A DNA stretch of 64,000 nt from an uncultured Actinomycetes bacterium (GCA_963794695.1 CAWCFJ010000007.1:44310-108309), one strand, 5' to 3'; shown: positions 1,771-39,062, counted from the stretch's first letter. The notes: generated from the sequence alone by a model not told the origin. Made by a program: numbers and translations.

Positions 1771-1775
1771 CCGAC

Positions 1776-2378: not shown

Positions 2379-2391
2379 GCTCGCAGCATAA

Positions 2392-2439: not shown

Positions 2440-2452
2440 CTAGGGTGCGTCC

Positions 2453-4600: not shown

Positions 4601-4770
4601 CCGTCTCCGCTGGCTCGTCGGCCGCGCGGCCCGCCTCACCCCGCGATCGGCGGCCCCACCACGCGCGCTGGGGCGTCGCACACGGTGAGACGGTACCGCG
4701 AACCGGTTGCAGCGCCGGCGGCCGCGGCCTAGTGTCGTCGGCGCGACAGCAGACGACAAGGAGGTACGTC

Positions 4771-6715: not shown

Positions 6716-7147
6716 ACGCGCGGCCGTACTCGTCCACGAAGTCCCAGACCCGCAGGTGGCCGGGCTCGAGCCGGACGATCACGTCGCTGCCGCCGTGGGC
6801 GTCGGCGTAGGGCGGACCGTCCTGCGGCCCGAGGTAGCGGGCGGCGATGCGGCGGGCCGTCTCGTTGACGGCCTGCTCGACGAAGCGGGCGGTGGTGCGC
6901 AGCTCGACGCCGCGCAGCGGCCGCTCGGACTCGGCCACCACGATCGTCGCCCGCGGGTCGCGGCGGAGGTGGCGGGCCTTCGCGTCGAGGCCGTCGATCC
7001 ACAGGTTGAAGCCGCCGTCGCGCCACTCGTGCCAGACCGGTGAGAGCAGCACGCTGCCGTCCGCCCGCAGCGTCGCCAGCACCGCCACGCGCGGCTCGTC
7101 GAGGAACGAGCCGAGCTCCTCGATGGGGAGGTCCTTGCGCACGCGGC
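6708..7147 (-). CDS. PPOX-class (pyridoxamine 5'-phosphate oxidase-like, probably F420-dependent) family protein
   Basis: DLPIEELGSFLDEPRVAVLATLRADGSVLLSPVWHEWRDGGFNLWI... . The longer ORF upstream of about 7150 is Arg-rich junk. Confidence 0.65.
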
Positions 7148-7198
7148 CACGATAGGCCACGCCGGAAGGCGGACGGGCTGGCGGTCGTTGTCGTCCCC

Positions 7199-8114
7199 AT
7201 GAGCGTCGAAACGACCACGGCCGTCGTCGCGACGGCCTTCGGCGGCCCCGAGGTGCTCGAGCTCCGGGAGCTGCCGCTCGCCCCGCCCGGCCCCGACGAG
7301 GTGGTGCTCGAGGTCCGCGCCGCGGGCACCAACCCGATCGACTACAAGCAGTACAGCGGGGCGATGGGCCGGCCGGAGCTGCCGCTGCGGCTGGGCGCGC
7401 GAGGCGTCCGGGGTGGTGGTCGGCAGCGGCGCCGAGGTGATCGCGTACCCGCGAACGGCACGTACGCGACGCACGCTCGTCGTGCCGGCGTCGAGCCTGG
7501 TCGAGAAGCCCGCGGCGCTCGGGTTCGAGGAGGCCGCCGGGCTCCTGCTGGCCGGCGTGACGGCGACCCACGCGCTGGCGGTCGTCGAGGCCGCAGCCGG
7601 CGACACCGTCCTGCTGCACGGCGCCGCCGGCGGGGTCGGGCTGCTCGCGATCCAGCTCGCGGTGCTGCGCGGCGCCCGGGTGATCGGCACCGCGAGCCCG
7701 GGCAGCCACGACCTGCTGCGCGAGCTCGGCGCCGAGCCCGTGGCCTACGGCGAGGGCCTGGCCGAGCGGATCCGGGCGCTCGCGCCGGACGGGGTCGACG
7801 CCGTCGTGGACGCCGCCGGCGGAGACGAGGCGCTCGACATCTCGCTGGACCTGGTCCCGGACCGCGGCCGCATCGTCACGATGGTCGCCGGGCCACGCGC
7901 CTTCGAGGCCGGCGTCAAGGTGATCGGCGGCGCCCCGGGTGCCGACCCGGGCACCGAGATCCGCCGCAGCGCCCGGCCCGAGCTGGCGCGGCTCGCCGGC
8001 GAGGGCACGCTGCGGGTCGTCGTCGCCGGCTCGTACCCGCTGGCCGAGGCCGCCGAGGCCCACCGCCGGCTGGCCGAGCGCCACGCCCACGGCAAGCTCG
8101 TCCTCACGCCCTGA
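7199..8114 (+). CDS. NADPH:quinone oxidoreductase / zinc-type alcohol dehydrogenase (MDR) family, frameshift near 7390
   Basis: N-terminus (MSVETTTAVVATAFGGPEVLELRELPLAPPGPDEVVLEVRAAGTNPIDYKQ...LPLRLG) lies in the frame of 7040. The nucleotide-binding remainder (VVGSGAEV...GAAGGVGLLAIQLA...) lies in the frame of 7413. One indel in 'ctgggcgcgcgagg' separates them. Confidence 0.7.
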
Positions 8115-8195
8115 GAGCCGGTGGAAAACGACGGAAGCCCGCACGGGGCGGGCTTCGGTCATCGGAAGATCAGGCGGTAAATGGTCGGGGGACGT

Positions 8196-8795: not shown

Positions 8796-8997
8796 GTGGG
8801 TCGCGACCAGGCCGGTCAGGCAGACGAAGGCGCCGAGGCAGGCGACGGCGATGCGGCGCCGGGGCTGCAGGTGCGAGCGGCGCGGGGCGTGGCGTCGTGA
8901 GCTCCATGCGGCGACCGTACGCCGCGTCCGTCACGCCCCCGCGCCGCCTCGACCAGCGGCGCCGGCGGCCCGCTCAGCGGTGTCGCGGCTGGGCGTT

Positions 8998-9900
8998 CAG
9001 GGCAGATGGCGACGGCCCGGATGCGTCTCGTCGGTGAACGGCTGGCCGTTGTCCTCGTACACGTCCCAGAACGTGCCCTGCGGGAACGCAGCTGTTGAGG
9101 TCGACGGTCACCGAGCCCGAGCTGGACAGGGCGCCGCCGCCGAGCGGCGGCTGGCCGGCCGGGCAGGTGACGAAGCGCCCGGTTCTGGGACGACGGCGGG
9201 TTCATCACCGGCGCCCCGACCTGCACCGAAGTAGCCCTTCGGCTTCTTGGCGCAGATCGGCGAACACCTCGAACGTCGTGTCGAAGTTGGTGTTGGTCGT
9301 TCATGTCGGTGCGCCAGCCGTTGGCCTCGGGGAACGTGCTGTTGATCAGCACCGCAGTGCTGCCGGTGTTCGAGAGGCGAGCCGCCGCCGTACACCACGG
9401 TGTGCGCCGGACACGTCGAGCTGCCGCTGGCCTGCGTCTCGGCGGGGTCGGTGAACACCCCGCTCTCCACGATCGTCGTAGTTGCGGACGGCCTTGCCGC
9501 ACACCGCGTACACGGCGAACGTCGTCGGCGAGCTGACGTTGTTGACGTCGGCGACCCACGTGTTGCCGGCCGGGAAGGAGCTGTTCACGTTGGCGTTCAG
9601 CCCGCTCGAGGCGACACCACGCCGCCGCCGTAGGCCACCGTGCCGATCGGGCAGGCGACCGAGCCGCGGGTCTGGGTGAACTGGTCGAGGTGAAGAGCTG
9701 GGAGTGCACCTGGACGTAGCCCTTCGGCAGCTTGCCGGCAGCGCGGGTGCTGCCGGCAGGCCGTCTTGCCGGGCGCGGGCGCCGACGCCGGAACGCCCTG
9801 GACCGGGTTCTTGGGCTGGTCGGCCAGCGCGGCCGGGGCGGATGCGGCCAGCGCGACGCCGGCCAGGGCCGCTGCGAGCGGCCTCGCCTTCGAGGTCATG
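8998..9900 (-). pseudogene. Secreted repeat protein (signal peptide MTSKARPLAAALAGVALAASAPAALA), reading frame broken at least 4 times
   Basis: Pieces in all three minus frames are protein-like and repeat a module (CPxGTVAYGGG / CPAHTVVYGGG / FPAGNTWVADVNN / FPEANGWRTDMN). The DNA also carries an internal direct repeat (...acctgcaccgaagtagcccttcggc... at ~9210 and ...cacctggacgtagcccttcggc... at ~9700). C-terminal ...FWDVYEDNGQPFTDETHPGRRHLP ends at stop 8998-9000. Confidence 0.5.
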
Positions 9901-10032
9901 CGATCGGCTCCTTCGGAGGTCTCGCCGGCCAGGCGCTCGTCGGAGGCCGGCTGATCGACAGCCGCGACCCTACGGGCGCCGCTCGGATCCTGCGAACTGG
10001 CCGACCGGCCGAAATCAGTCTGGACGAAACGA

Positions 10033-10889
10033 TTAGGTAGGGCGGACCCCGTAGCGCGCCGCGTGGGCCACCGTCTGGCGCGCGCTGCGCACCAGCGCCG
10101 CGTCGACGAACGCGCCGTCGGCGAGGGCGATCGCGCCGACGTGCGCCCGCTCGGCGGCGGCGAAGCGGGCCAGGAGCTCGCGGGCCCGCACGACCTCGTC
10201 GGCGGCCGGCAGGTAGGCCGCCTCGATGACCGGGAGCTGGCGCGGGTGGATCGCCGACCGGCCCAGGTGGCCCAGCGCCCGGCCGCGCTCGCAGGAGCGG
10301 GCGAGGCCGGCGTCGTCGTCGCGGTGCGGGAAGACCGACTGCGGCGGGCGGGGGAGGCCCGCGGCGACGGCGGCGTTGACGATCCGGCTGCGGGCCCAGT
10401 CGAGCCCCTCCTCGGTGGCGCCGAGCTCGGCCCGAAGGTCGCTCTCGCCGAGCGAGAGGCCGGCCAGGCGCGGGCTGCACGACGCGATCTCGAACGCGGC
10501 CTCGACGCCGCGGGCGGACTCGACGAGGCAGTGCACCGCGAGCTCCGGCGCGCCGGCGGCGTCGAGCAGGTCGAGCACGGCCTCGACGTCGTCGGGGCTC
10601 TCGACCTTCGGAAGGTGGATCCGGTCGAGCTGGGGGAGCCGGGCCACCGCCTCGAGATCGGCCCGGCCGAACGCGTCGACAGCGGGTTGACGCGGACGCT
10701 GACCGGCTTCTCGGGGGCGTTGGTGAGCAGGCCGGAGAGCGCGTCGCGGGCGGCCTCCTTGAGCGACGGCGCCACCGCGTCCTCGAGGTCGACGATGACC
10801 GCGTGCGCCCGCGAGTCCAGCGCCTTGGCCACCAGCTCGGGCCGGCTCGCCGGGGCGTACAGCCAGGTCAGGGGCGGGAGCTCGGTCAC
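10033..10889 (-). CDS. HpcH/HpaI aldolase / citrate-lyase beta (CitE-like, citryl-/malyl-CoA lyase) family protein, frameshift near 10690
   Basis: N-terminal LTWLYAPASRPELVAKALDSRAHAVIVDLEDAV is in one frame. C-terminal ...DRIHLPKVESPDDVEAVLDLL...CLVESARGVEAAFEIA is in another. The GTG start at 10889 overlaps the stop of the upstream CoA-transferase gene (GTGA). Confidence 0.65.
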
Positions 10890-12081
10890 GCGACGACGCC
10901 GTCCCTGCGCAGCCGGTCGATCGCCTCGGCGTCGAGCCCGGCCTCGGCGAGCACGGCGTCGGTGTCGGCGCCGTGGGCCCGGCCGGTCCAGCGGATCGTG
11001 CCCGGCGTGTCCGAGAGCCGGGCCAGCACGTTCGGCATCCGCAGCGGGCCGAGCTGCTCGTCCTCGACCCGGGCGATGGCCCCGATCGCGGCGAGCTGGG
11101 GATCCTCGACGATGTCGCTCGCGTCGTACACCGGCGCCACCGCCGCGTCGGCCTCCTCGAACGCCTGCAGCACCTCGCTCGCGCGAGCGGGCGCCGATCC
11201 AGGCCGCCACCGCGCCGTCGATCTCCTCGACGTGGGCCACCCGGCCCGAGCCGGTGGCGAACCACGGCTGCGTCGACGAGGTCGCCGCGGCCGACGAGCC
11301 GCAGCACCCGGGCGGCGACGCTGTCGGCGCTCGAGGAGACGGCCACCCAGTGCCCGTCGGCGGTCGCGTAGACGTTGCGCGGCGCGTTGTGGCGCGAGCG
11401 GTTGCCGCTGCGCGGCTGCAGCACCCCGAGCTGGTCCCAGGCCGAGACCTGGGGCCCGAGCAGCCCGAGCAGCGGCTCGATCAGCGACACGTCGACCTCC
11501 TGGCCCTCGCCGCCGGCGTCGCGGGCCCGCAGCGCCGCCAGGATCGCGAACGCCGTCGCCAGCGCGGCCACGCCGTCGGCCAGCGCCAGCGGCGGCAAGA
11601 GCGGCGGGCCGTCGGCCTCGCCGTTCAGCGCAGCGAACCCGCTCATGGCCTCGGCCAGCGTCCCGAAGCCCGGCCGGCCGGCGTAGGGCCCGGTCTGGCC
11701 GAACCCCGTGACCCGGGCCAGGACGAGCCCGCGGTTGTCGCGCCTGAGCTCCGGAAAGCCGAGCCCCCAGCGCTCGAGCGTGCCGGGCCGGAAGTTCTCG
11801 ATGACCACGTCGGCCCGGCTCGCGAGCCGCAGGAACACGTCGCGCCCGGCGGGCTTCGACAGGTCGACCGCCGCGAGCCGCTTGTTGCGCCCGAGCATCT
11901 TGAACCACAGGCCTGCGCCGTCCTTGGCCGGGCCGTGGCCGCGCGCCGGGTCGGGTCGGGACGGGTGCTCGATCTTGACCACGTCCGCGCCGAGGTCGCC
12001 CAGGAACATGCCCGCCAGCGGTCCGGCGAACAGGGTCGCCGCCTCGACGACCCGGAGCCCTTCGAGAGGTCCGGCGCTCAC
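10886..12081 (-). CDS. CaiB/BaiF family (class III) CoA-transferase, two indels near 11200-11260
   Basis: LEGLRVVEAATLFAGPLAGMFLGDLGADVVKIE near the N-terminus. C-terminal ...EVLQAFEEADAAVAPVYDASDIVEDPQLAAIGAI.... The central block AHVEEIDGAVAAWIGARSRER is only found in the third frame. Confidence 0.7.
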
Positions 12082-14031
12082 GTCGGCGGCTCGAGGTCGA
12101 CGGCCAGCCGGAAGCCGATCCACGGCGAGCGCTGCAGCTCGCCGCCGAGCAGCAGCAGCTCGAGCGACCAGGACGGCTCCTGCGGGCCGCCGTCGACGTA
12201 CCAGTCGGAGCCCTCGGCGCGATACCCCGACCCGCCCTTGAGGATCGCGAAGCGCGTCCGCCCGTCGTGGTGCTCGCTCTCGGTCCAGTTCCAGACGCGG
12301 GGCTCGGCGCGCTCGAGGACGCCGGCCTCGGCGGCGAGCTGCCACTCGTCCTCGGTCGGCAGCCGGGCGCCGGCCCAGACGGCGTAGGCTCGGGCCTCGG
12401 CCAGCTCGACGTTCGTCGCCGGCGCGTCGGGCGGGCCGCTCGGAGGCCGCCCGCTGAACCGGGCGAGCTCGGCTGCGGTCACCTCGCGCGCGGCGACGGC
12501 GACCCGGCCGAAGAGCTGGTTGGGCCCGGGTCGCGGGACCTCGACCAGGTCGTGCAGCCGGGGCGGCAGCGGCTTCCACTCCTCGACGTACGGCGCGACC
12601 CCGTAGATGCCGGTCTCGCGGCGGCGGAACACGGCGGTGAGCGGACGCGGCTCGACCGCAGCGAACCCCGGCGGCGGCTGGCGCCAGGCCGCGCGCGGGG
12701 TCGGCAGGCGCACGACCTCGCGGGCCGGGAAGGCCCGGTCGCCGGGCGGGTCGGCACGCAGCGCGTCAAGGTCGACCGCCAGCTCGGGCGGGAGGGCCAG
12801 CAGCGCGCCCAGGCCGTGCTCCGGGAGCTCGACCGCGACCCGCTCGGCGGCGACCAGCTCGCGGCCGGCGAAGAGGTCGTACAGCCGGTGCCCCTCGGGC
12901 AGGCCGTCGAGCAGCAGCTCGCCGCGGAAGGCGCCCGCCGGCGCTCGTCGCGAGCGTCCACAGGACCCCGCCGGAGCCGGCGAAGCGGGAGCCGACGACC
13001 GCCGGCCGCGACGGCTCCGCCGAGCGCACCGCGAGCGGCTCCCAGTCGCCGTCGGTCAGCAGGTCGGCGAAACGGCGCTGCACCCGCAGCATCGAGCGCA
13101 GCAGCGAGGCGTCGCGCTCGCTCCAGCCGACCCACGAGCCGAACACGTTCTCCCACACGAGCACCCCGACGCCGTTCAGCCAGGCGCTCCGCAGCTCCTC
13201 GGCGTGGTCGCGGTTCCAGCGCCGGGTGTGGCGGAGCAGGTGGCGCTGCTCGAACCAGCGCGCCCGCAGCACGCCCGGCACCGGGCTGTCGGCGACCCAC
13301 TGGGCCCACGACAGGTGGTGGTCGGCGATCCGCTCGCACGGCACGCTCGACTCCCCCTCGAAGGCCACGCCCGGCCGGGCGGCGTCCACCGCGGCGCGGA
13401 GCTCCGGGCGGGCCTCGCGCAGCGTGTCGAGCATGACCCCGTCGGCGCCGAGCCAGGCCACGACGTCGGCCACCGCCTGCTCGTCGGGCATGCCGGAGCG
13501 CCGGGTGCCGACGTCCCACGGGTTGTAGTCCAGGAACACCCGCACCCCGTGGTCCTGCAGGTGGGCGACCAGCTCGGGCAGCCCCGGGACGCCGCGGTAC
13601 AGGTCGAACTGGTTGCGCTCGTCGATCCCGATGACCGGGTAGGCGTGCCACAGCACGATCCCGTCGTACCCGCCGAACCGCCGCTCGCCGTCGCGAAGGA
13701 AGCGATCGGGCGTGAACGTGCGCTCCTCGTGGTCGTACAGCAGCTCGTCCCACAGCCAGGCCAGGGCGACGCACAGGCAGCGCGGCGTCCAGGCGAAGGC
13801 CGGGTCGCGGTACGCGGCGCCGTCGTAGCCCGTGCGGGCCCGGGCCTCGTCGCGCCAGCGGCGGAGGGCCGCACGCCAGGCGGGCCAGTCGGCGACGGCG
13901 TCGGGTGCGGCCAGGATCTTGGCCCGGTCGAGCACCGCCAGGTCGGCGTCCGGCTCGAGCGGCACGGCCGTCGGCAGGTCGACCGGGCGCGGAACGAGCG
14001 GGTCGCGCGGGGCGTCCATGGCCAGGGTCAT
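12078..14031 (-). CDS. Two-domain protein: N-terminal hydrolase-like domain of unassigned family fused to a C-terminal FGE-sulfatase (SUMF1/EgtB/PvdO-like) domain, frameshift near 12770-12900
   Basis: The ATG at 14031 overlaps the stop of the upstream ARH gene (ATGA). N-terminal part ...GIVLWHAYPVIGIDERNQFDLYRGVPGLPELVAHLQDHGVRVFLDYNPWDVG...GVMLDTL... reads as a TIM-barrel-like hydrolase. C-terminal part AYAVWAGARLPTEDEWQLAAEAG...RVWNWTESEH...LKGGSGYRAEGSDWYVDGGP...WIGFRLAV matches the FGE C-terminal signature. Its stop overlaps the CaiB start. Confidence 0.55.
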
Positions 14032-15330
14032 GCGGCCACCAGCAGCGTCCGCTCGGCCAGCGCCGCGATGGACGCGCCGTCGAAGCCGGGGAGCGAGGTG
14101 GCGATGCGGTCGCGCAGCGGCGCCGTCCAGCACTCGGGGATGCCGGAGGCACCGACCCGGGCGCCGAGGATGGAGCCCACGGCGGCGCCGTTCGAGTCCG
14201 TGTCCCAGCCGGCCGCCACGGCGGCGCAGATCGCCGCCCGAGTAGTCGTCGCCGAAGCGGCACAGCACCGCCGCGACGAGCGCGGTGTTGTTGATCGCGT
14301 GCACCCAGTGCAGCTCGCCGAACGCCTGCTCGAGCCCGTCGACGACCCGCTCCCAGTCCGCGTCGCTCTCGGCCAGCGCGCGGGCCGTGCGGATCGCGCC
14401 GGCGAGCCGGGAGCGCGGCGGCACCGCCTCGAGCCCGGCCTCGACGCAGCTCGCGGGCGTCGCGCCGGCCACGGACGCCGCGCTCGCGGCAGCCATGAAG
14501 GTGGCCGCGGAGATCCCGTTGGCGGTGTGGCTCAGCCGCGCGTCGCGGTACGCCAGCGCGGCGGCTGCGCCCGGGTTGCCGGGGCGGGCCCAGCCGTACA
14601 GCTCGACCCGGATCCGGGCGCCGATCCACTCCCGGAACGGGTTCCTGTAGGTCGCCGTCTCGGGCGGCAGAAGGCCCAGCAGGAGGTTGCGGTAGGCGAG
14701 CCGCTCGGCGGTGAACGAGCGACCGGCCGGCATCAGGTCGAGCCACGCCTGGGCCACGTCCTCGGTCGTCAGCGCGTCGCCGTGCTGCTCGAGCAGGTGC
14801 AGCGCCAGCAGCGTGTAGTTGAGGTCGTCGTCCTCGGGCATGCCGTCGATCGTCTCGGCCAGGCTCGTCGCGGCGCTGCGGCGGTTCCAGGGCCAGCGGG
14901 CGGCGACCTCGGCGGGCAGGCCGCGGGCCGTGAACCAGCCGTCGAGCGGCCAGCGGCCCGACGCCTGGAGCAGCTCCCGGATGCCCTCGCGCGGGAGCTT
15001 CTCGACCGGCTTTCCGAGCAGGCAGCCGGCGGCCCGGCCGAGCCAGGCGCCGTGGATCCGGTCGCCGAGATCCGTCGGGGAGGAGCCGCCGGACGCCCCG
15101 GGAGAAGGGAGGTAGACACCCGGGGCGTCCGGCTCGTCGCCGGTCTCTGGGGAGGCTCCGGCGGCAAGCTCGTCGAGCAGCTGCTCGGCCAGGGGACGGA
15201 GGGAGCGGGAGGCGGGCGCAGACGACGCTCCGGCACGGACGGGCGCCTCGTGGCCGCCGGCGGCCCGCCAGCGCTCGGCGGCGTCGCCCACGTCGCGGCC
15301 CTCCTCGCGTGCCTGACGCAGGGCGTGGCC
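14028..15330 (-). CDS. ADP-ribosylglycohydrolase (ARH/DraG-like) family protein, copy 2, with an unusual ~100-aa Pro/Ala/Ser-rich N-terminal extension and a C-terminal frameshift near 14235
   Basis: DRIHGAWLGRAAGCLLGKPVE...NYTLLALHLLEQHGDALTTEDVAQAWL...HAINNTALVAAVLCRFGDDYS. The C-terminal end (AAGWDTDSNGAAVGSILGARVGASGIPECW...) is in the frame of ORF 14028..14219. The start is not resolved. Confidence 0.6.
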
Positions 15331-15356
15331 CACCAGGTCCTCGGGCTGGACCCAGG

Positions 15357-16580
15357 TCAGCCGCACCCGTCCCGCCCGTCGAGCGTCGCGAAGGACGCGG
15401 CGCGGGCCGCGTGCGCCGCGTCGTCGCGGGCGAAGATCTCGCGGGCCACCGCGGCCATCTCGCTGCCGGGGGCGTCGAGGTCGATCCGGCTGGCCGTCGC
15501 GACCTCGTCGGCCCAGTCGGCACGCACGCCGTCGCGCCCGGCCAGCGCGCCGGCGATCGCTCCGCCCATCGAGGCGATCGAGTCGGCGTCGCGGCCGTAG
15601 TTCACGCCGCCGAGCACCGTCTCGGCGAAGTCCCCGCCGGTGGCCACGAGCAGGCCGAGCGCCACCGGGAGCTCCTCGATCGCGTGCACCCGGCTCGGCC
15701 GTCGGGCGTCGAGCCCGGGCTGGAAGTACACCGGGCCGACGGTGTCGTACGGCTCGACCGCGGCGCGCAGCGCGGCGAGCCCGCCCTCGCGCCAGCCGTC
15801 GAGGTCGGCGGCCCGCTCGCACACGGCCTCGACGGCCGCACGGGTGCCGTCCTCGGCCCGGGCCAGGCAGGCCGTGACGACCGAGCCGACGTCGGCGCCG
15901 GGCCGCAGGGCCTCGGCGACCGCTGCGGCGAAGACGCCCGCCGCCTCGCGGCCGTAGCTCGACTGGTGCGCCCCGGCGATGTCGAGCGCCTCGCGGTAGG
16001 CGCCGGCGGCGTCTCCGGCGTTGGCGATCCCGACCGGCGCGCAGTACATCGCCGCGCCACAGTTGACGATGTTGCCGACCCCGGCCTCGCGCGGGTCGAC
16101 GTGCCCGTAGTGCAGCCGCAGGACGAGCCACTTCTCGGCCAGCGCCAGGCGGTGCAGCAGGAGCTCCTCGCGGCCGAGCTCGGGAATCCAGATTCGCTCT
16201 CCGATCAGCTCGGGCACCAGCAGCCGCTCGACGTCGTAGGCGCCCAGGTGGTCGCGCTTCTGCGCGTACACCCGCACCAGCGCGCGCGTCACCAGGGTGT
16301 CGTCGGTGACGTGCCCGTCGCCCTTGTGGAACGGCGCCAGCGGCCGGTCGTCGAGGGCGTGGGTCATCGACGGCACGACGCCTTCGACGAACCCGCCGTA
16401 GTGCTCGACGATGTCCGCCTGGCCCCGGCCCTCGGTGGCGCCGCCGAGGGCGTCGCCGATCGCCGCGCCGACGAGGCAGCCGCGGGCCCGACCCTCGAGG
16501 TCGAGCCCCGAACGAGCCTCGGTGGCGAGGGCCTTCACGCCCTCGCCACTCGTGTGGCTCCCGTTGCCGTCAGCCGGCAA
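15357..16580 (-). CDS. ADP-ribosylglycohydrolase (ARH/DraG-like) family protein, copy 1
   Basis: Intact 407-aa ORF. CLVGAAIGDALGGATEG, GNIVNCGAAMYCAPVG and VNYGRDADSIASMGGAIAGALAG are the ARH metal-binding motifs. Confidence 0.75.
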   Translation of the reverse strand: MPADGNGSHTSGEGVKALATEARSGLDLEGRARGCLVGAAIGDALGGATEGRGQADIVEHYGGFVEGVVPSMTHALDDRPLAPFHKGDGHVTDDTLVTRALVRVYAQKRDHLGAYDVERLLVPELIGERIWIPELGREELLLHRLALAEKWLVLRLHYGHVDPREAGVGNIVNCGAAMYCAPVGIANAGDAAGAYREALDIAGAHQSSYGREAAGVFAAAVAEALRPGADVGSVVTACLARAEDGTRAAVEAVCERAADLDGWREGGLAALRAAVEPYDTVGPVYFQPGLDARRPSRVHAIEELPVALGLLVATGGDFAETVLGGVNYGRDADSIASMGGAIAGALAGRDGVRADWADEVATASRIDLDAPGSEMAAVAREIFARDDAAHAARAASFATLDGRDGCG

Positions 16581-17850
16581 CCGAGTCCCATCCCGACTTC
16601 AGCTTCGCGCCGAGGTCGCTCAGGCTCATCTGGTTCTGGAAGTACTGCTGGAACGCGGGCGTGGCCGTGTCGTCCTTCCACTGCGGGTAGGCGGCGAGGT
16701 TCTGGAACGGCGCCACCTCCAGGGTCTTGAGCGAGGCGATCATGACACGCCAGGCGCCCCGGTTCTTGGTCGTCGCGAGCACCTTCTTGCCGGCCGCCGG
16801 GTTCGACGGGATGAGCCAGTCGCCCGTGGCCAGCTTGGCCATGTTCTGGGCGTTCAGGAAGTAGGCGATGAACTGCATCGCCTCGGCCTTGTGCTTGCTC
16901 TGCTGGGCGATCGAGAGCGTCTGCGGATCGGCCGCCTGGGCCTGGGTGACGCCCTTGAGCGGCGGCAGCATCACCCAGCCGAAGCCCGCGGGAGCCTGCT
17001 CGACCATCTGCTGCGCGGCGTAGGAGCCCTGCATGGTCATCGCCGTCTTGCTGGCGAAGAACGCGGGCAGCACCGCGCTGCCGGACGCGCCGACGCTGCT
17101 CGGGTCGACCGACTTGTCGGTCCAGATCATGTCGTGGATCAGCTGCGGCACCTTCTGCTCGGCCGCGCCCCACTTGAACTGGTACTTCGAGCCGCTCGGG
17201 TAGAAGAACTTGCCGTTGTAGTTCAGCGCCGTCGAGAGCACCGCGGCGGTCGGCGACTTGAGGCCCCAGCTGACGCCGTACACGCCGCTCCGGGTCAGCT
17301 TCTTGGCGTTCGCCCGGAACTGGGCCCAGGTCCAGGGATCGTTCTCCGTCGGCACGGCGATCCCGGCCTGCTTCAGGAGCGTCGCGTTCGCGAACAGGTT
17401 GTAGGTCTGCAGCAGGAACGGGACGCCCGCGACCTTGTGGTTGAAGGTCACCGACGACCAGATGTTCTGCGGGATGCTGGACGTCAGCTCGGACGAGCGC
17501 AGCTTGCTCAGATCGGCCAGGTAGCCCTGCTGGGCGAACCCGCGGATGTCGGCCGCCTCGTCGTGGATGATGTCCGGCGCAGAGCCGCCGACGAAGCTCG
17601 TCAGGAGCTTGTCGTGCACCGAGTCCCAGTCGCCCTGCACGTACTGCACCTGGATGCTCGGGTGGCTCTTGTTCCAGGCGTTGACGATCGCCTGGTTGGC
17701 GGCCACGGTCGGCTTCTGCCAGGCCAGGCTCTGGAAGGTCAGCTTGACCGTTGCCTGGCCGCTGGACGACGCGCCTTGAGCCGCCGTCACGACGCTGACC
17801 GCACACGCAAGCGCTGCGGCGGTCAGGCCGATCGTCCTCCTCCTCTTCAT
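16570..17850 (-). CDS. ABC transporter substrate-binding protein (extracellular solute-binding family 1, carbohydrate type)
   Basis: Signal peptide MKRRRTIGLTAAALACAVSVVTAAQGASSSGQ. Typical sugar-binding-protein length and composition. Heads the transporter block of this operon. Confidence 0.8.
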   Translation of the reverse strand: MKRRRTIGLTAAALACAVSVVTAAQGASSSGQATVKLTFQSLAWQKPTVAANQAIVNAWNKSHPSIQVQYVQGDWDSVHDKLLTSFVGGSAPDIIHDEAADIRGFAQQGYLADLSKLRSSELTSSIPQNIWSSVTFNHKVAGVPFLLQTYNLFANATLLKQAGIAVPTENDPWTWAQFRANAKKLTRSGVYGVSWGLKSPTAAVLSTALNYNGKFFYPSGSKYQFKWGAAEQKVPQLIHDMIWTDKSVDPSSVGASGSAVLPAFFASKTAMTMQGSYAAQQMVEQAPAGFGWVMLPPLKGVTQAQAADPQTLSIAQQSKHKAEAMQFIAYFLNAQNMAKLATGDWLIPSNPAAGKKVLATTKNRGAWRVMIASLKTLEVAPFQNLAAYPQWKDDTATPAFQQYFQNQMSLSDLGAKLKSGWDSVAG

Positions 17851-17899
17851 GTCTCCCCGTGCCCTTTCTGTCGGGCGGCGACCGGGTGGCCGCCGCCGA

Positions 17900-18751
17900 T
17901 TACCCCTTGACGGCCCCCGAGAGCAGCCCGCCGGTGAGCCAGCGCTGCATCACCCCGAAGAACACGAGGCTCGGCAGCGTCGCGAGCAGCGCGGCGGCTG
18001 CCAGCGGCCCGAGGCGCGGGATGCCCTCGATCCCCACGAACTGCGCGAGGGTGACGGGCAGGGTCGTCAGCGACGGGTCCTGCAGCAGCACCAGCGCGAA
18101 GAAGAACTCGTTCCAGGCCAGGACGAACGCGAACATCACCGTGACGATCACGCCCGGCAAGAGCAGCGGGGCGATCACGTGGATCAGGATCTGCATCCGC
18201 GACGCCCCGTCCACGGCGGCCGCGTCCTCGAGGTCGGTCGGGATCCCGCGGATGTAGGTCTGCAGCATCCAGAGCGTGAACGGCAGCGCCCAGACCAGGT
18301 ACACGAGCACGAGTCCGGTGTGGGTGTTCGTCAGCTGGAGCCGCCGCAGGAGCAGGAACAGCGGGATGATCACCAGGATCAGCGGGAAGACCTGGGTGAG
18401 CAGGATCCAGCCCGTGCCGAGCCGGCTCAGCAGCCCCTTGTGGCGCGCCAGGACGTACGCCGCCGGCAGGCCGAAGAGCGTCGTGAGGAGCGCGGTCGCG
18501 AGCGAGATCTTGGTGCTGTTGACGGCGCTCGTGACGAGCCGGTCGGTGTCGAGCGCCTCGCGGTAGTTCGCGAGCGACAGGCTGTCGGGCAGGAACGAGG
18601 GGTGCAGCTCGACGAGCTCCCGCGGCCCCTTGAACGAGATGGACAGCATCCACAGCAGCGGGAAGGCCAGGAACAGCATGTACACGGCCAGCAGCGCGTA
18701 CTGGCTGGTGCGCGCGGCGCGCCGTTGACGGCGGCTGGTGACGATCATGCC
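17900..18751 (-). CDS. Carbohydrate ABC transporter permease (MalG-like)
   Basis: Real part starts MIVTSRRQRRAARTSQYALLAVYMLFLAFPLLWML.... It carries the EAA-like loop DLEDAAAVDGASRMQILIHVIAPL. Confidence 0.8.
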   Translation of the reverse strand, partial: GMIVTSRRQRRAARTSQYALLAVYMLFLAFPLLWMLSISFKGPRELVELHPSFLPDSLSLANYREALDTDRLVTSAVNSTKISLATALLTTLFGLPAAYVLARHKGLLSRLGTGWILLTQVFPLILVIIPLFLLLRRLQLTNTHTGLVLVYLVWALPFTLWMLQTYIRGIPTDLEDAAAVDGASRMQILIHVIAPLLLPGVIVTVMFAFVLAWNEFFFALVLLQDPSLTTLPVTLAQFVGIEGIPRLGPLAAAALLATLPSLVFFGVMQRWLTGGLLSGAVKG

Positions 18752-19677
18752 GTCTCCCGGAAGCGCCGCCAGAGGTAGGCCGAGAGGATGATCGCGATGA
18801 CGATCACCATCAGATCGCCGAGCGCCGCGGCGTAGCCGAACTGGCCGTACTTGAAGGCCTCGTCGTAGGCGAACAGCATCGGCACCCGGGTCTTGCCGCC
18901 GGGCCCGCCGTCGGTGAGGACGTACAGCAGGCCGAACGAGTTGAAGTTCCAGACGAAGTCCAGCGTGGTGATGGCGACGATCACGCCGGCGAGCTGGGGG
19001 AGGGTCACGCTGCGGAAGCGGCGCAGCGCGCCGGCGCCGTCGACCGCGGCCGCCTCGTGCAGCTCGTCCGGCATCGTCTGCAGCCCGGCGAGCAGGGCGA
19101 CGGTGGTCTGCGGCATCCCGGCCCACACGCCGACCAGGATCGCCGCCGGCAGGGCCAGGCTGAAGTCGGCCAGCCAGTCGGTCGTCGAGCCCGGCAGGTG
19201 GGTGCGGAAGAGGATCTCGTTGAGGACGCCCGCCTGCTGCTGGTAGACGAGCTTCCACATGATCCCGACGATCACCGGCGGCATCGCCCAGGGCACCAGC
19301 GAGAGCGCCCGGGCGACCCCGCGGCCGCGCAGCGGGGCGTTCAGCAGGAGCGCCAGGCCGAGCGCCAGCACGAACTGGATCGCGGTCACCGAGAACGCCC
19401 AGATCAGGCCGATCTTGAACGACTCGACGAACTGGCTGTCGTTCAGGGCGGTGCGGAAGTTCTCGAGCCCGACGAAGTGCGTCTGCAGGCCGAGCCCTGC
19501 CTGGGAGTCGGTGAAGCCGAGGTAGATCCCGCGGATCAGCGGGATCGCGCTGAAGACCATGATCGGCAGCAGCGCCGGGACGACCAGCAGGATCGCCCCG
19601 CGCGACGAGAGACCGGAGCCGGCCCGGCTGCGGCGGCGGGTGCGGGGCACGCTGGCGTCGACGCCCGCGACGCTCAC
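18745..19677 (-). CDS. Carbohydrate ABC transporter permease (MalF-like)
   Basis: ...MPALLPIMVFSAIPLIRGIYLGFTDS...ELHEAAAVDGAGALRRFRSVTLP.... The GTG start at 19677 overlaps the lacI stop. Confidence 0.8.
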   Translation of the reverse strand: MSVAGVDASVPRTRRRSRAGSGLSSRGAILLVVPALLPIMVFSAIPLIRGIYLGFTDSQAGLGLQTHFVGLENFRTALNDSQFVESFKIGLIWAFSVTAIQFVLALGLALLLNAPLRGRGVARALSLVPWAMPPVIVGIMWKLVYQQQAGVLNEILFRTHLPGSTTDWLADFSLALPAAILVGVWAGMPQTTVALLAGLQTMPDELHEAAAVDGAGALRRFRSVTLPQLAGVIVAITTLDFVWNFNSFGLLYVLTDGGPGGKTRVPMLFAYDEAFKYGQFGYAAALGDLMVIVIAIILSAYLWRRFRETA

Positions 19678-20696
19678 GCGGGGATCCTGGGCGCGGAGTC
19701 GCGCACCACGAGGCGCGCCGGGTAGCGCACCCGCTGCGGCGTTCGGTCCGGCCGGCCGAGGCGGGCGAGCAGCAGGTCGGCGGCGATGCGGGCGCGATGG
19801 CCGGAGCCGAGGTCGACGCTGGTCAGCGCCGGCCAGCACAGCTCGGCGAGGTCGGTGTCGTCCATCCCGGCGATGGCCACGTCGTCGGGAACCGAGAGCC
19901 CGGCGCGGTGCAGGGCCCGCAGGCCACCTGCCGCCAGGAGGTCGTTGGCGAACAGGATCGCGTCCGGCTCGCCCCGGTGCAGGAGCCGCTCGGCGGCGGC
20001 GTAGCCGGCGTCGGCGGTGAAGTCGTCGGCGACCTCGACGAGGGCGTCGTCGCGCTCCTGGCCGGCGTCGCGCAGGCCCTCGAGGTAGCCGAGGCGGCGC
20101 TCGTGGCCTGGCAGCGTGGCGACGGGGCCGTTGACGAAGGCGATCCGGCGCCGGCCGAGCGCGTGCAGGTGGGCCACGGCCAGCCCGGCGCCGCGGCGCG
20201 AGTCGGCCTCGACGGCGTCGACGGCCAGGCCCTTCGGCAGCCGTCCGATGACCACCACCGGCGCCGCCGCCTCGCGCAGCGCCTCGGCGTGGGCCTCGGT
20301 CACGACCAGGGTGGCGATGATCAGCCCGTCGACGAAGCCCTGGCCGAGGTCGCGCACGATCTCGAGCTCGTCGGCCGCGTCGGAGCCCGTGGAGTGCAGC
20401 ACGAGCCGGCTGCCCGCCGCCGCCGCGGCTTCCTGGATGACCCGCACCATGCGCGTGTAGACCGGGTTCGCGACGTCGGGCATGGCGAACGCGATGTGGC
20501 CGGTACGCTGCGAGCGCAGGGAGCGGGCGGCGGCGTTCGGCATGTAGCCGACGCTCTCGGCGGCGGCGACGACCCGGGCGACGGTCTCGGGATGGGTCTG
20601 GATGCCGTTGAGCGCGCGGGAGGCGGTCGCGATCGAGACGTTCGCCGCGCGGGCGACGGTGCTGAGCGTGGGCTTGCGCTGGGAGGCGGCAGTCAT
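19674..20696 (-). CDS. LacI family transcriptional regulator
   Basis: N-terminal HTH TLSTVARAANVSIATASRALNG, followed by a periplasmic-binding-protein-like effector domain. Confidence 0.85.
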   Translation of the reverse strand: MTAASQRKPTLSTVARAANVSIATASRALNGIQTHPETVARVVAAAESVGYMPNAAARSLRSQRTGHIAFAMPDVANPVYTRMVRVIQEAAAAAGSRLVLHSTGSDAADELEIVRDLGQGFVDGLIIATLVVTEAHAEALREAAAPVVVIGRLPKGLAVDAVEADSRRGAGLAVAHLHALGRRRIAFVNGPVATLPGHERRLGYLEGLRDAGQERDDALVEVADDFTADAGYAAAERLLHRGEPDAILFANDLLAAGGLRALHRAGLSVPDDVAIAGMDDTDLAELCWPALTSVDLGSGHRARIAADLLLARLGRPDRTPQRVRYPARLVVRDSAPRIPA

Positions 20697-20721
20697 CGAC
20701 GGCGTCCTGTAAAGGATTCCA

Positions 20722-20733
20722 GTAATCGATTAC
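20722..20733. promoter_or_regulatory. Perfect 12-bp palindrome GTAATCGATTAC (LacI-type operator core) in the AT-rich region upstream of lacI
   Basis: The sequence reads ...cctgtaaaggattccaGTAATCGATTACagaggcgggatggttacag.... It resembles the TGNAANCGNTTNCA operator class. TGTAA-like half-sites also flank it at 20707 and 20746. Confidence 0.45.
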
Positions 20734-21618: not shown

Positions 21619-22083
21619 ATGACGACCCACCGGAGCGACTTCGACTTCTACGTCGGCACCTGGAAGATCCACAACCGCCGGCTGCGCCAGGCCCTCGCCG
21701 GCTCGACCGAGTGGTACGAGTTCGAGGCCACCGGCCGGGCCAGGAGCATCCTCGACGGCGGCGGCAACATCGACGAGTACGAGGCTCCGAGCGAGGGCCT
21801 CGTCGGCTTCACCCTGCGGGTCTTCGACCCGGAGCGGGACGAGTGGCTGCTGTACTGGGCCGGGCGCGCCGGCGGGCCGCTCGGCGCGCCCCAGGTCGGG
21901 CGGATGGAGAACGGCCGCGGCGACTTCTACGCCGACGACGTCTGGAACGGCATCCCCATCCGGGTCGTCTACCGCTGGACCGTGATCAGCCCGAACGAGG
22001 CCCGCTGGGAGCAGGCGTTCTCGACCGACGGCGGCGAGACCTGGGAGACGAACTGGATCATGGAGTCGACCCGGGTCGAGTGA
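21619..22083 (+). CDS. DUF1579-like hypothetical protein
   Basis: MTTHRSDFDFYVGTWKIHNRRL...WLLYWAGRAGG.... The family naming is tentative. Confidence 0.5.
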   Translation: MTTHRSDFDFYVGTWKIHNRRLRQALAGSTEWYEFEATGRARSILDGGGNIDEYEAPSEGLVGFTLRVFDPERDEWLLYWAGRAGGPLGAPQVGRMENGRGDFYADDVWNGIPIRVVYRWTVISPNEARWEQAFSTDGGETWETNWIMESTRVE

Positions 22084-23018
22084 GCTACGCGGCGCTGGCG
22101 CGGTGCTGCTGCGGGCTGACCCCGCGCACCCGCTTGAACGCGGTGCTCAGCGCGAACGGGCTGCCGTAGCCGACCTGCGCGGCGACCGAGCCGATGGTGG
22201 TCTCCGGGCTCGAGCAGCAGGTCGGCCGCCAGCGCCAGGCGCCAGCCGGTCAGGAACGCCATCGGCGGCTCGCCCACGAGCTCGGCGAAGCGCCGCGCCA
22301 GGGTGGCCCGCGAGACCCGGCAGGCCGTCGCCAGCGAGGCGACCGTCCAGGGGCGTTCGGGCTCCTCGTGCAGCAGCCGCAGCGCCGGGCCGACGATCGG
22401 GTCGGACGCCGCCCGGTACCAGCCGGGCGCCTCCGCCGCGGGGCGGGCGAACCAGGCGCGCAGGACGGCGATCAGGAGCAGGTCGAGCAGCCGGTCGAGC
22501 ACCGCCTCCTGCCCGGGCGCGTCCTTGACGACCTCGTCGGCGAGGAGCGGGATGAACGGGCAGTCCCACTCGTCCCGGCGCAGCACCACGAGCGGCGGAA
22601 GCGCCCGCAGGAGGCGCTGGCTGACGGCGCCGTCGAGCTGGTAGGTGCCCGTCAGCAGGACCGTCTGGCCGTCGAGCGTGTTGCCCCAGGAGCGCACGCC
22701 GAGGTCGCGCATCGACAGCTCCCGCCCGTCGGGCGTCGTGCAGCGCTGCCCGGGCAGGATCACGACCTGCGGCGGCGTCGACGGCTCGTCGGCCACCAGG
22801 TAGTGGCCCGGGCCGCGGACGACGGCCACGTCGTGCCCGGTGAGCCGCGTCCACGGGCCGTCGTCGAAGGCCAGGTGGGCGGAGCCGCGGACGACCGCCA
22901 CCAGCGTGAGCGGCGCCTCGTCCTCGATGCGCAACGACCACGGCGGCTCGAGGCTCGAGCGCAGCAGGAAGGCCCCGCGGGCCCGGGGCCCGTCGAGCAG
23001 GCCGGCGATGGCGTCCAT
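22084..23018 (-). CDS. AraC family transcriptional regulator (cupin N-domain), C-terminal frameshift near 22215
   Basis: The C-terminal HTH is restored by removing one g in 'cccggag': ...LEPETTIGSVAAQVGYGSPFALSTAFKRVRGVSPQQHRASAA*, ending at 22084. Confidence 0.7.
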
Positions 23019-23100
23019 GCCGCAGATCCTAGACGCTCGCGCATGCTTCTGCGGGATATGACTATGGACGGTCTCATTCGACGCTGCTCAACTTGCGGCA

Positions 23101-23909: not shown

Positions 23910-25767
23910 AACGCCGCTCCCCGCCCAGCAGCGCACGTCTACGCGCCCCGACTCCAGTGGTACCTGCGCAGCGTCATCGCGATCGCAGCGCCGCTGGTGG
24001 TCGGGGCTGTCGTCGTTCTGGCGCGCGGCGACCACGCGTCGGGCGCGCTGCTCGGGTCCCTGGTCTTCACCGTGGCGGCCGCCGCCGCCGAGCTGAAGCC
24101 CGTCCCGCTCGACGACACCGGCGACCGCAGCGTCTCGCTGGCCTTCGTCTTCCTGCTGGCGAGCCAGATCCTGTTCGGCTGGCCCGTCGCCGTGGTCGGC
24201 GCCGTCGTCTGCATGGGCCTCAGCCAGGCGGTCGAGCGGACCCCGCTCCCGCGCGCGACGTTCAACACCAGCGTCTACGCGCTGTCGGCCTTCCTGTCAG
24301 CCGCGCCGGCGCTGCTCACCGGCTGGGACGGGACGAGCGCCCGCGGCGACTCGTACGCCCTGATCGTGTACGTGTTCGTCGGCGGCGCCACGTTCGTGCT
24401 GGCCAACGTCCTGCTGATCGCGATCGCCGTGTCGCTGTTCCAGGGCACGCCGCTGCGGACGATCGTCGAGGACTACATCGGCCACGCCGGGCCGGCGTTC
24501 GCGATCATGGCGTTCATCTCGGCGCTGGCGACGGCGCTGTGGAAGATCTGGCCGCCGCTCGAGGTGCTGCTCGCCGGGCCGCTGTTCGCGCTCGCGCTGT
24601 ACCAGAGCTACGCCTACCGCTCGCTGGTCGCGACCCGGGATGCCGAGACCGACGGCCTGACCGGCCTGCGCAACCACCGCACGTTCCAGACCGACCTGCA
24701 CGAGTCGCTCGAGGCGGCCGAGTCCGAGCAGGCCTGCCTGGCGCTGGTGATGCTCGACATCGACGACTTCAAGGGGATCAACGACCAGTACGGCCACCCG
24801 ATCGGCGACCAGGTGCTGCGGACGATCGCCGAGGTGCTGGGCGAGATCGCCGGCACCGAGCGGGTCTTCCGGGTCGGCGGCGAGGAGTTCGCGGTGCTCC
24901 TGCCCGAGCGCGGGCCGGCGGCGGCGAAGGAGCTGCTGGACGACGTCCACGCCAGGATCGGCGACACCACGTTCCCGCACGACGAGCGGGTCACGGTCAG
25001 CGCGGGCATCGCCGTCTTCCCCGAGATGGCCGACAGCCGCGACAGCCTGGTGCAGATGGCCGACAGCGCGCTGTACTGGGCCAAGAACCACGGCAAGGCC
25101 CACACCTGCGTCTACTCGAAGGGCATCGACAACGTGCGCCGGCCGAGCGAGATCGCGGTGCTCGCCGAGCGTCACGGGCGCCTGCGGGCGGCCGAGAGCC
25201 TGATCCGGATCGTCGACGCGAAGGACACCTACACCGGCGAGCACTCCCAGTCGGTGAGCCGGCTCGCGGAGGGCATCGCCCGCACCCACGGCCTCGACGC
25301 GAAGACGGTGGAGCAGGTGCGGCTGGCCGCGCTGCTGCACGACATGGGGAAGATCGCGGTGCCCGACCAGATCCTGCAGAAGCCCGGCAAGCTCGATCCC
25401 GACGAGCTCGCGGTGCTGCGCGAGCATCCCGAGCTCGGCTTCCAGCTGCTCGAGGGTCTCGGCGTGGCCCCGGTGGACGCGTGGGTGCGCCACCACCACG
25501 AGTTCTGGGACGGGAGCGGCTACCCGCACGGCCTGCAGGGCGAGGAGATCCCGCTCGGCTCGCGGATCATCCTGGTCGCCGACGCCTTCGACGCGATGAC
25601 CAGCGACCGGGCCTACCGCCGCGGCGGCAGCGTCCGGGACGCCGTCGCCGAGCTGCGGCGCAAGTCGTGGACGCAGTTCGACGCCCGCTTCGTGGCCGCC
25701 CTCGAGGCGTACCTCGGCCGAGCAGGGCATCGCCGACGATCCTCCGTCCACGGCGGCGGTCGGCTGA
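23910..25767 (+). CDS. Membrane-anchored diguanylate cyclase (GGDEF) + HD-GYP phosphodiesterase hybrid protein
   Basis: N-terminal multi-transmembrane domain. GGDEF block RNHRTFQTDL...LDIDDFKGINDQYGHPIGDQVL...RVGGEEFAVLL. HD-GYP block AALLHDMGKIAVPD...HHHEFWDGSGYPHGL. The start (GTG 23910) and end are uncertain. The frame runs on into the next gene, but a TGATG stop/start junction exists at 25765-25769 in the +1 frame. Confidence 0.7.
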
Positions 25768-26312
25768 TGGTGCTCGCCCTCGGAGCCGTGCTGGGCATCC
25801 TCGTCGGGTACGTCCTGGGCGGGAGCCTGCCCCGGCTCGCGGACCTGAAGCTGCGCGGCCTCCCGCTGTTCGGGATCGCGATCGGCCTGCAGCTCCTGGC
25901 CTATCCGCCGAGATGGGCGCCGCCGGACCGGGTCGCGACCTGGATGTGGCTGTCGAGCTACGGCGTGATCATCGTCGTGGCGGTGCTGAACCGGCGCGTC
26001 CGCGGCTTCCCGCTGGCGACGCTCGGGATGCTCTCGAACCTGGCCGCGGTCACGAGCAACGGCGGGCACATGCCGGCGCTGCGCAGCGCGATGGCCGACG
26101 CCGGGGTGGACTTCGGCGTCCGGGCCAACAGCGTGGCCGCGAGCTCGCCGAACCTCCCCTGGCTGATCGACCGCTGGGGCGCGCCGTGGTGGGTTCCCAT
26201 GGCCAACGTGTACTCGGTCGGCGACGTGCTCCTGGCCCTCGGCGCCGTGGTGATCGTGGCCGCCGGGATGGGTGCCCGGCTGCCGCGGCTGCCCCGCCGC
26301 CAGCCTGCCTAG
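25767..26312 (+). CDS. Small integral membrane protein (DUF5317-like?) downstream of GGDEF/HD-GYP
   Basis: MVLALGAVLGILVGYVLGGSLPRLADLKLRGLPLFGIAIGLQLLAY.... The ATG at 25767 overlaps an out-of-frame TGA. Confidence 0.45.
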   Translation: MVLALGAVLGILVGYVLGGSLPRLADLKLRGLPLFGIAIGLQLLAYPPRWAPPDRVATWMWLSSYGVIIVVAVLNRRVRGFPLATLGMLSNLAAVTSNGGHMPALRSAMADAGVDFGVRANSVAASSPNLPWLIDRWGAPWWVPMANVYSVGDVLLALGAVVIVAAGMGARLPRLPRRQPA

Positions 26313-33962: not shown

Positions 33963-34003
33963 GGCACGAGTATAGGCGGACGTCGGGGAGCGTCCGGCCC
34001 CGA

Positions 34004-39033: not shown

Positions 39034-39062
39034 GGCGACGACGATCGCATACTTGACTTCCA

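Follow-up and report, generated by a model that had tools for sequence, protein, structure and literature searches.

The closest described concept for the system analyzed here is that of the Bacteroidetes rus loci, in which a ribokinase and a regulator are paired with variable hydrolases, including ADP-ribosylglycohydrolases, esterases, and glycoside hydrolases (bioRxiv 10.1101/574913). Our subject is a locus on the minus strand of a 64,000-nucleotide (nt) stretch of DNA from an uncultured Actinomycetes bacterium (GCA_963794695.1 CAWCFJ010000007.1:44310-108309), which we call the window. Between positions 10033 and 20733, a LacI-family repressor and a sugar ATP-binding cassette (ABC) importer are followed by two ADP-ribosylglycohydrolases (ARH1 and ARH2), a fusion of a glycosidase-like domain, X, to an FGE-fold domain (X-FGE), a family III coenzyme A (CoA) transferase (CaiB), and a CitE-like lyase. 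Like the rus loci (Glowacki et al.), some of which also use a LacI protein as the regulator, the system brings together a ribokinase, a regulator, and hydrolases that would free ribose from a conjugate. It differs in that rus loci depend on SusC/D uptake and have no X-FGE, CoA-transferase, or lyase, whereas here the enzyme set is fixed and strictly conserved and includes a branch for degrading an acid. We propose, with somewhat better than even confidence, that these genes form a catabolic operon, induced by its substrate, for a ribofuranose glycoconjugate of a β-hydroxy polycarboxylic acid.

The component enzymes can be compared with described families in the same way. The ARH-family enzymes DraG, ARH1, ARH3, and Tri1 have the PF03747 fold and di-metal ligands in common with the two locus proteins, and ARH3 cleaves O-glycosidic α-ribosyl bonds; the locus differs in presenting a tandem pair of paralogs, one of them with an N-terminal extension of ~100 amino acids (aa), in a sugar-catabolic context. 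Domain X resembles GH13 and clan GH-H enzymes in that a (β/α)8 barrel is followed by a β-sandwich and in carrying a region-II-like motif, GxDGxxxDTxK, but it has no Pfam or HHalign link to them, apparently lacks the Arg at position −2, and invariably occurs joined to an FGE-fold domain. Within the FGE/EgtB/SenA/PvdO fold family, the locus domain stands apart in being C-terminal to a glycosidase-like barrel and in having neither an invariant Cys pair nor a DinB iron domain. For the last two enzymes the relevant comparisons are citrate lyase, in which CitF and CitE carry out acyl/CoA transfer onto a hydroxy-polycarboxylate and then cleavage, and the Ict/Ccl (RipA/RipC) pair; in both, as proposed here, transfer precedes CitE-family cleavage to acetyl-(CoA/ACP) and a 2-oxo acid. 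The locus is not a citrate lyase because it has no acyl carrier protein (ACP) subunit or CitF. Membership of the Ict-Ich-Ccl itaconate pathway is ruled out because no locus compared contains an itaconyl-CoA hydratase gene, and CitE reaches 161.8 bits on its best NCBIfam match, RipC_Ccl, far short of the cutoff of 375. Unlike either precedent, the pair is here wired to an operon for glycoside import and hydrolysis.

Results

Conservation of the gene string and its accessory members

Scanning one genome per species, we found X-FGE encoded in at least 541 species genomes, and the best 80 loci were compared. The nine-gene string of LacI, two permeases, binding protein, ARH1, ARH2, X-FGE, CaiB, and CitE is complete and collinear in 67 of them; in the other 13, contig ends interrupt it. 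The earlier note on this DNA had named a failure of these genes to co-localize elsewhere as telling against its interpretation, and what we find is a string that is collinear in 80/80 loci as far as the contigs reach. It spans at least three actinobacterial classes, in loci from Gaiellaceae and other Thermoleophilia, Catenulispora, Kribbella, Actinophytocola, the Micromonosporaceae (Micromonospora, Plantactinospora, Phytohabitans, and Asanoa), and one Limnocylindria metagenome-assembled genome (MAG), and it recurs on three metagenomic contigs. The X-FGE and CaiB genes overlap in 70% of loci and those for CaiB and CitE in 89%.

Initial clustering of flanking open reading frames (ORFs) returned no conserved extra genes; two accessory members, a ribokinase and an esterase, came to light from fusion proteins and a directed tblastn search. 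In 47 of the 80 loci the gene next upstream of X-FGE encodes a ribokinase-like PfkB protein, and in 4 such a gene comes just after CitE. PfkB and X-FGE are fused in proteins P0133 and P0134, both in operon context, the former in two independent samples. The operon kinases score 264-283 bits against the ribokinase model TIGR02152 (cutoff 299.65) and below 100 bits against every non-ribokinase family. On one Limnocylindria (Chloroflexota) contig (L047, 48-3534), the gene next to ribokinase and X-FGE on their upstream side is more like ARH1 than ARH2, and the contig ends there. Esterase homologs occur in 29/80 loci (18 between X-FGE and CaiB, 6 after CitE, and 5 upstream), and in P0124 the esterase is fused to the X-FGE C terminus in the same operon context. 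The window's own copy, which adjoins lacI on its upstream side in the same orientation, is closest among solved structures to metagenomic and ferulic-acid esterases. The esterase is thus an accessory member of the system.

A more distant counterpart comes from Sphingopyxis sp. FD7, whose plasmid pSFD01 carries two divergent operons with the same activities. One encodes a TonB receptor, a kinase named "ribokinase" by PGAP, an X-FGE protein of 38% identity, a GH127-like/β-L-arabinofuranosidase-domain protein, and a CoA transferase; the other encodes a CoA ester lyase, a Na:solute symporter, a LysR regulator, and a carboxylesterase. ARHs, esterase, transporter, and regulator are each replaced by a non-orthologous protein, which argues for one pathway that would require furanosidase(s), X-FGE, ribokinase, esterase, CoA-transferase, and CoA-ester lyase together. 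The earlier note had read the locus as importing a glycosylated or ribosylated compound, de-ribosylating it, and passing an acid moiety through CoA activation and lyase cleavage; the embedded or fused ribokinase, the recurrent esterase, and the Sphingopyxis analog lend this core interpretation independent, comparative support.

Organization of the locus

Because the window has a G+C content of 69-77%, plain ORF lists are uninformative, and we relied instead on periodicity of G+C at third codon positions (GC3) and a seven-state segmentation. By these measures, minus-strand coding is unbroken from 10033 to ~20716, in the order operator, lacI, permease 1, permease 2, binding protein, ARH1, ARH2, X-FGE, CaiB, and CitE (Table 1). 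Pfam profile searches of the locus proteins bear out the identities and order that had been assigned from the DNA alone. The interval 10033-20733 holds nine genes, not the ten then claimed for it; a tenth, functionally linked gene, the esterase, is located just beyond it. Stop/start overlaps hold at six junctions. LacI and permease 1 share a GTGA (19674-19677), the two permeases an ATGA that spans 18745-18748 rather than 18745-18751 as had been stated, ARH2 and X-FGE an ATGA (14028-14031), X-FGE and CaiB a GTGA (12078-12081), and CaiB and CitE another (10886-10889); ARH2 starts at GTG 15366, which overlaps the stop of ARH1. Between permease 2 and the binding protein there is a gap of 49 nt, and the reported overlap of binding protein and ARH1 (16570-16580) holds only if TTG 16580 is the ARH1 start; GTG 16538 is equally good, and the ortholog alignment starts at 16511. 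The fusion product of 12078-14031 has full-length homologs, although its reading frame is whole only after frameshift correction. The observations of the earlier note are in this sense partly confirmed. The window has no Rfam match and no tRNA match, and scanning for promoters and terminators gave no useful signal.

The operator is a perfect 12-bp palindrome, GTAATCGATTAC, at 20722-20733, 26 nt upstream of the lacI ATG; apart from an adjacent copy with two mismatches at 20709-20720, the window holds no other match at up to 2 mismatches. Of 68 orthologous loci, 58 have a site resembling GTAA(A/T)CG(A/T)TTAC ahead of lacI. The helix-turn-helix and sugar-binding domains of LacI, the palindromic operator, the SBP_bac_1 protein, and the two BPD_transp_1 permeases together identify a LacI-regulated CUT1 importer. 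The top NCBIfam match of LacI is RbsR, below the cutoff. The nearest solved structure to the binding protein is YesO, at an E-value of only 1e-19, and an exact-protein look-up of the window's binding protein returned no match. There is no MalK homolog in the window; a divergent MalK gene is found only in Gaiellales-type loci.

Table 1. Features of the locus and, in the last four rows, other frameshifted genes of the window (positions counted from the first nucleotide of the window)
Feature	Position	Strand	Evidence or remark
PF00756 putative esterase, 250 aa	20791..21543	-	Pfam Esterase E 1.5e-15, profile 2-249 of 251
LacI operator, perfect and adjacent imperfect copy	20709..20733	.	Perfect 12-bp palindrome at 20722-20733
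LacI-family repressor, 340 aa, intact	19674..20696	-	Pfam PF00356 and PF13377
ABC permease 1, GTG start	18745..19677	-	PF00528 (BPD_transp_1)
ABC permease 2, start ATG 18748	17900..18748	-	PF00528 (BPD_transp_1); tblastn residue q1 at 18748
CUT1-type solute-binding protein, 426 aa, intact	16570..17850	-	PF01547 (SBP_bac_1) E 4.6e-38
ARH1, intact, start TTG 16580 or GTG 16538	15357..16580	-	PF03747 E 1e-40, profile 1-285 of 287
ARH2, frameshifted	14028..15366	-	PF03747 E 2.1e-32 (first frame piece)
X-FGE, frameshifted	12078..14031	-	FGE-sulfatase Pfam match E 8.6e-12, C-terminal
Family III (CaiB/BaiF) CoA-transferase, frameshifted twice	10886..12081	-	PF02515 (CoA_transf_3) E 7.6e-91
CitE-like β-hydroxyacyl-CoA lyase, frameshifted	10033..10889	-	PF03328 (HpcH_HpaI) E 1.9e-16
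GH13 gene	37311-39078	-	PF00128 cut at 399 of 446, DUF3459 in other frame
Split Zn-dependent dehydrogenase	42198-43008	-	Break ~42406
Split Cupin_6/AraC regulator	22082-23033	-	Break ~22205
Split Zn-dependent dehydrogenase	7145-8183	+	Break ~7393

The tandem ADP-ribosylglycohydrolases

Both ARH proteins belong to the family by full-length match to the PF03747 profile. The metal-site residues are at least 97% conserved in each, comprising E29, T72-D-D-T75, and D311/D313/S314 among 68 orthologs of ARH1 and E118, E174-D-D-D177, and D384-T-D386 among 69 orthologs of ARH2; the N-terminal extension of ARH2 is itself conserved. Resemblance to solved ARHs is confined to the C-terminal DxDT motif, and NCBIfam scores fall far short of the Tri1 and DraG equivalog cutoffs (40 versus 490 bits and 28 versus 337 bits, respectively). 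The substrate of the locus ARHs is probably not a nucleotide. An apparent ARH/X-FGE fusion, P0009, was rejected as a frameshift artifact because of its Arg-rich out-of-frame stretch.

The X-FGE fusion protein

With its two frames joined, X-FGE is 650 aa long and has more than 2,337 full-length homologs; these measure 590-620 aa and show 61-65% identity with a coverage of 99%, and the fusion is genuine. The AlphaFold model of a homolog, P0002, comprises a (β/α)8 barrel, a β-sandwich, and a C-terminal FGE-fold domain. In this model, the top structural matches of X are GH13 enzymes, and the predicted fold has the same barrel and β-sandwich. X contains invariant D201 (in GADGVFLDT), E224/E226, and D273-region residues, aligned by eye only. 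When 30 members of the X family were searched against Pfam with E-values up to 5, no glycoside hydrolase family was found, the only match being GHL6 at an E-value of 0.09 in 4 of the 30, so that the domain does not resolve to any Pfam glycoside hydrolase family, the other outcome that the earlier note had named as telling against its reading. Comparison of X by hhalign with the window's own GH13 protein gave a probability of 0.35%.

The C-terminal domain has the FGE fold. C-S-bond or oxygen chemistry of the FGE type, which had been suggested for it, is not borne out because the domain has no invariant Cys and no DinB partner, the N-terminal region being a TIM barrel; X-FGE scores 41 bits against the SenA equivalog cutoff of 420 and 28 bits against the EgtB cutoff of 360. 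The FGE-fold domain of X-FGE is probably non-catalytic.

Scanning 1.84 billion cluster representatives with phmmer, we identified 1,516 relatives of the X barrel (representatives at 50% identity) from several phyla. Nine of ten barrel relatives scanned against Pfam have an FGE domain, the exception being P0157, with an ARH match only, and none of those scanned has a Pfam glycoside hydrolase match. The remote contexts of X-FGE in P0162, P0212, and Spirosoma gave no clue to the substrate. On contig L089, an extracellular X-FGE homolog of 1,546 aa (1002-5642) carries CHB_HEX_C, Fn3_assoc, and dockerin-like repeats, and a Macro-domain gene (286-801) adjoins it. Since Macro domains bind ADP-ribose, this neighbor may again point to ribose chemistry; the pairing occurs on a single short contig and could be due to chance.

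The CoA-transferase and the lyase

CaiB belongs to PF02515, and its PDB matches, which include 4ed9, BbsF, Frc, YfdE, and SUGCT, place it nearest to C4-C5 dicarboxylate and formyl/oxalate CoA-transferases. Its top equivalog, succinate-glutarate CoA-transferase, scores 231 bits against a cutoff of 750, and all others are below cutoff too. CitE belongs to PF03328, with CoA-ester lyases as its closest relatives; the nearest solved structures are RipC (3qll, 5e-32), an acyl-CoA lyase β chain, and malyl-CoA lyase, and its PDB matches comprise 3qll, 8khl, and 4l9y. None of the five enzymes from ARH1 to CitE reaches an NCBIfam equivalog cutoff, and a full-text literature search found no published description of the operon. 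This supports the earlier statement that the combination maps to no described sugar-catabolic pathway, neither an equivalog nor a paper having been found that covers the system.

Other features of the window

A second sugar operon at 33991-41300 (minus strand), with LacI, a frameshifted GH13 oligo-1,6-glucosidase-like gene, SBP_bac_1, and ABC permeases, looks like an ordinary α-glucoside utilization locus. Directly downstream of the CitE stop, ~1.1 kb (8893-10040) shows no clear codon periodicity, tRNA, Rfam match, or terminator-like site. Large signaling proteins with GGDEF and HD-GYP-type (HD_5) domains are encoded on the plus strand at 23934-26309 and 56782-59133, the second also containing PAS and GAF domains. 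A MoxR AAA_3 ATPase followed by two BatA/VWA proteins (47631-51663, minus strand) forms a Bat-like aerotolerance-type cluster.

Discussion

The system appears to be an inducible, importer-linked catabolic operon for ribose scavenging, built largely from uncharacterized enzyme families. In the mechanism that we envisage, LacI would occupy the palindromic operator until an effector derived from the substrate released it. The CUT1 binding protein and the two permeases would then import the intact compound, with the ATPase supplied in trans in this organism and by the divergent MalK gene in Gaiellales relatives. In the cytoplasm, ARH1, ARH2, and X-FGE would act as three glycosidase-type enzymes to release D-ribose, which would be phosphorylated by a ribokinase encoded in the operon in most lineages and elsewhere in this genome, and the accessory serine esterase would remove an ester or open a lactone. 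The family III CoA-transferase would load CoA onto the freed hydroxy acid, and the CitE-like lyase would cleave the resulting CoA ester to acetyl-CoA and a 2-oxo acid. CaiB and CitE would thereby carry out, with free CoA, the equivalent of the CitF/CitE steps in citrate lyase and of the final step in the breakdown of itaconate.

As a speculative and rather unlikely candidate for the substrate, we suggest a ribocitrin-type oligo-α-D-ribofuranosyl (S)-homocitrate from Streptomyces. Streptomyces makes ribocitrin, described as "a tririboside of (S)-homocitric acid", and its biosynthesis is stated to be unknown (PMC12381216, PMC13136089). Were it the substrate, its three ribofuranosidic bonds might be divided among ARH1, ARH2, and X-FGE, one apiece; ribokinase would recover the ribose, and the role of the esterase would be to open homocitrate lactone. 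CaiB and CitE would together make up a free-CoA "(S)-homocitrate lyase" with acetyl-CoA (or acetate) and 2-oxoglutarate as products. Homocitrate synthase makes the (R) form, and (S)-homocitrate is a non-physiological enantiomer, so that a dedicated CoA-transferase/CitE route would be plausible. Ribocitrin also inhibits dextransucrase, a clan GH-H enzyme, which echoes the GH13-like fold of X. Ribocitrin as the substrate is a hypothesis only. Several other substrates were considered and dropped because no gene supports them, namely mycothiol or bacillithiol scavenging, apiose or aceric acid from rhamnogalacturonan II (RG-II), feruloylated arabinofuranosides, methanopterin fragments, succinylated or malonylated glycans, and itaconate, for which the hydratase is missing.

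A number of observations weigh against a ribofuranoside-degrading operon. The P0002 model is of moderate confidence only (pLDDT, the predicted local distance difference test score, 70.5, falling below 50 across residues 227-272), no sequence method links X to GH13, and the Arg that GH13 enzymes have at −2 of the nucleophile is apparently replaced by Phe or Met (GADGVxLDT, by eye). The ribokinase gene is absent from the window's operon and from 29 of the 80 loci; the only ribokinase-like PfkB gene of the window (52314-53216, minus strand; TIGR02152, 232 bits) lies beside a TetR regulator at a distance of 32 kb and may supply the kinase. Because the operon kinases score just below the TIGR02152 cutoff, they might act on a related pentofuranose. 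Four of the nine locus genes are broken, as sequenced, by five frameshifts. Finally, the working direction of CaiB and CitE is one that we infer. A reading in which that direction is reversed has CitE joining acetyl-CoA to glyoxylate or a 2-oxo acid from the aglycone while CaiB recycles CoA, in a malate-synthase-like assimilation or detoxification. The presence of malyl-CoA lyase among the nearest CitE structures fits this, as does the reversibility of Mcl-type malyl-CoA lyases, but no gene in the operon would yield glyoxylate and the accessory esterase better suits release of a preformed acid, and we regard condensation as very unlikely. It is likewise improbable that the locus consists of two independent neighboring modules, one for sugar import and hydrolysis and the other a generic C4-C5 dicarboxylate CaiB/CitE pair of the itaconate, citramalate, or malyl-CoA type. 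Such pairs are common in actinobacteria, and this CitE has its closest relatives in the RipC/Ccl enzymes that degrade itaconate; yet CaiB and CitE follow X-FGE in every locus, mostly with overlapping stop and start codons, esterase and ribokinase genes are inserted between or around the genes with the string left unbroken, ribokinase and X-FGE occur together with a CoA transferase and a CoA ester lyase even in Sphingopyxis, and the hydratase is missing. Membership of PF03747 with intact metal motifs could be taken to mean that the ARHs reverse ADP-ribosylation of proteins or small molecules, in a regulatory or antitoxin role to which the transporter is incidental. We give this hardly any credence, given the narrow similarity to solved ARHs, scores far below the Tri1 and DraG cutoffs, the invariable position of the ARHs between the sugar-binding protein and ribokinase/X-FGE, their replacement by a GH127-like furanosidase in Sphingopyxis, and the lack of an ADP-ribosyltransferase gene nearby. 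Nor do we expect the cluster to be biosynthetic, making a ribosylated hydroxy acid such as ribocitrin. The ribocitrin pathway is stated to be unknown (PMC12381216, PMC13136089) and CitE could in principle form homocitryl-CoA, but the importer with its binding protein, the LacI repressor, the hydrolase folds, and the ribokinase, with no glycosyl-, phosphoribosyl-, or ADP-ribosyl-transferase in the locus, make this extremely unlikely.

The frameshifts bear on whether the operon, whatever its substrate, is functional in this organism. ARH2 has a +1 shift at ~14232-14234, where its tblastn match splits (14233/14231), and X-FGE has one at ~12928-12932; CaiB has two, at ~11271 and ~11178, and matches in three pieces and three frames; CitE has a single shift at ~10680-10700 and matches in two pieces and two frames. 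If they are real, the half of the operon from ARH2 to CitE would be a recently decayed pseudogene cluster, with the operon intact in relatives. We retain this as a rival, albeit a fairly unlikely one, because the local density of shifts is 5- to 12-fold above that of the rest of the window: five fall within 5.3 kb (10033-15366), none in the upstream 5.3 kb, and roughly 4-11 in ~53 kb elsewhere. Against decay, unrelated genes of the window are also broken (GH13 at ~37668, two Zn-dehydrogenases, and an AraC regulator; Table 1), nearly all shifts are of the +1-insertion type, and the GC3 signal and the identity to orthologs are undiminished past each shift. In addition, at each of the four testable sites (14234, 12932, 11272, and 11178) the extra base is missing from L092, a relative with 93.5% identity, although L092 is itself an error-rich long-read contig, and long-read MAG contigs of the same family (L032 and L092) are split in a similar manner. 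On these grounds the five shifts are probably assembly indels, and the +1 bias across the window suggests systematic assembly indel error. A single stop-free stretch at 40289-42193 (minus strand) combines an AadA_C aminoglycoside-adenylyltransferase-type domain with a complete LacI through an Arg-rich, apparently out-of-frame joint and probably represents two genes merged by another indel. LacI and permease 1, which occupy separate frames with a GTGA in the window, are called as one product of ~655 aa in the metagenomic relatives L001 (3240-5207) and L002 (3287-5251), probably as long-read indel artifacts.

Should the locus indeed be a catabolic operon for a ribofuranose conjugate, the large bacterial ARH family would gain a metabolic role outside ADP-ribosylation, and if the conjugate were of the ribocitrin type, these ARHs would be the first enzymes of the ARH fold to act on a riboside that is not a nucleotide. 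X-FGE would become the founder of a new glycoside hydrolase family in which an FGE-fold domain is obligatory and to which the 1,516 representatives from several phyla would belong, and a pathway that handles an unusual hydroxy-polycarboxylic acid through CoA would come to light. Given its strict conservation and its presence in at least 541 species genomes, including those of the very abundant soil Gaiellales, the system would then imply a widespread but unrecognized ribose-based metabolite in soil carbon turnover.

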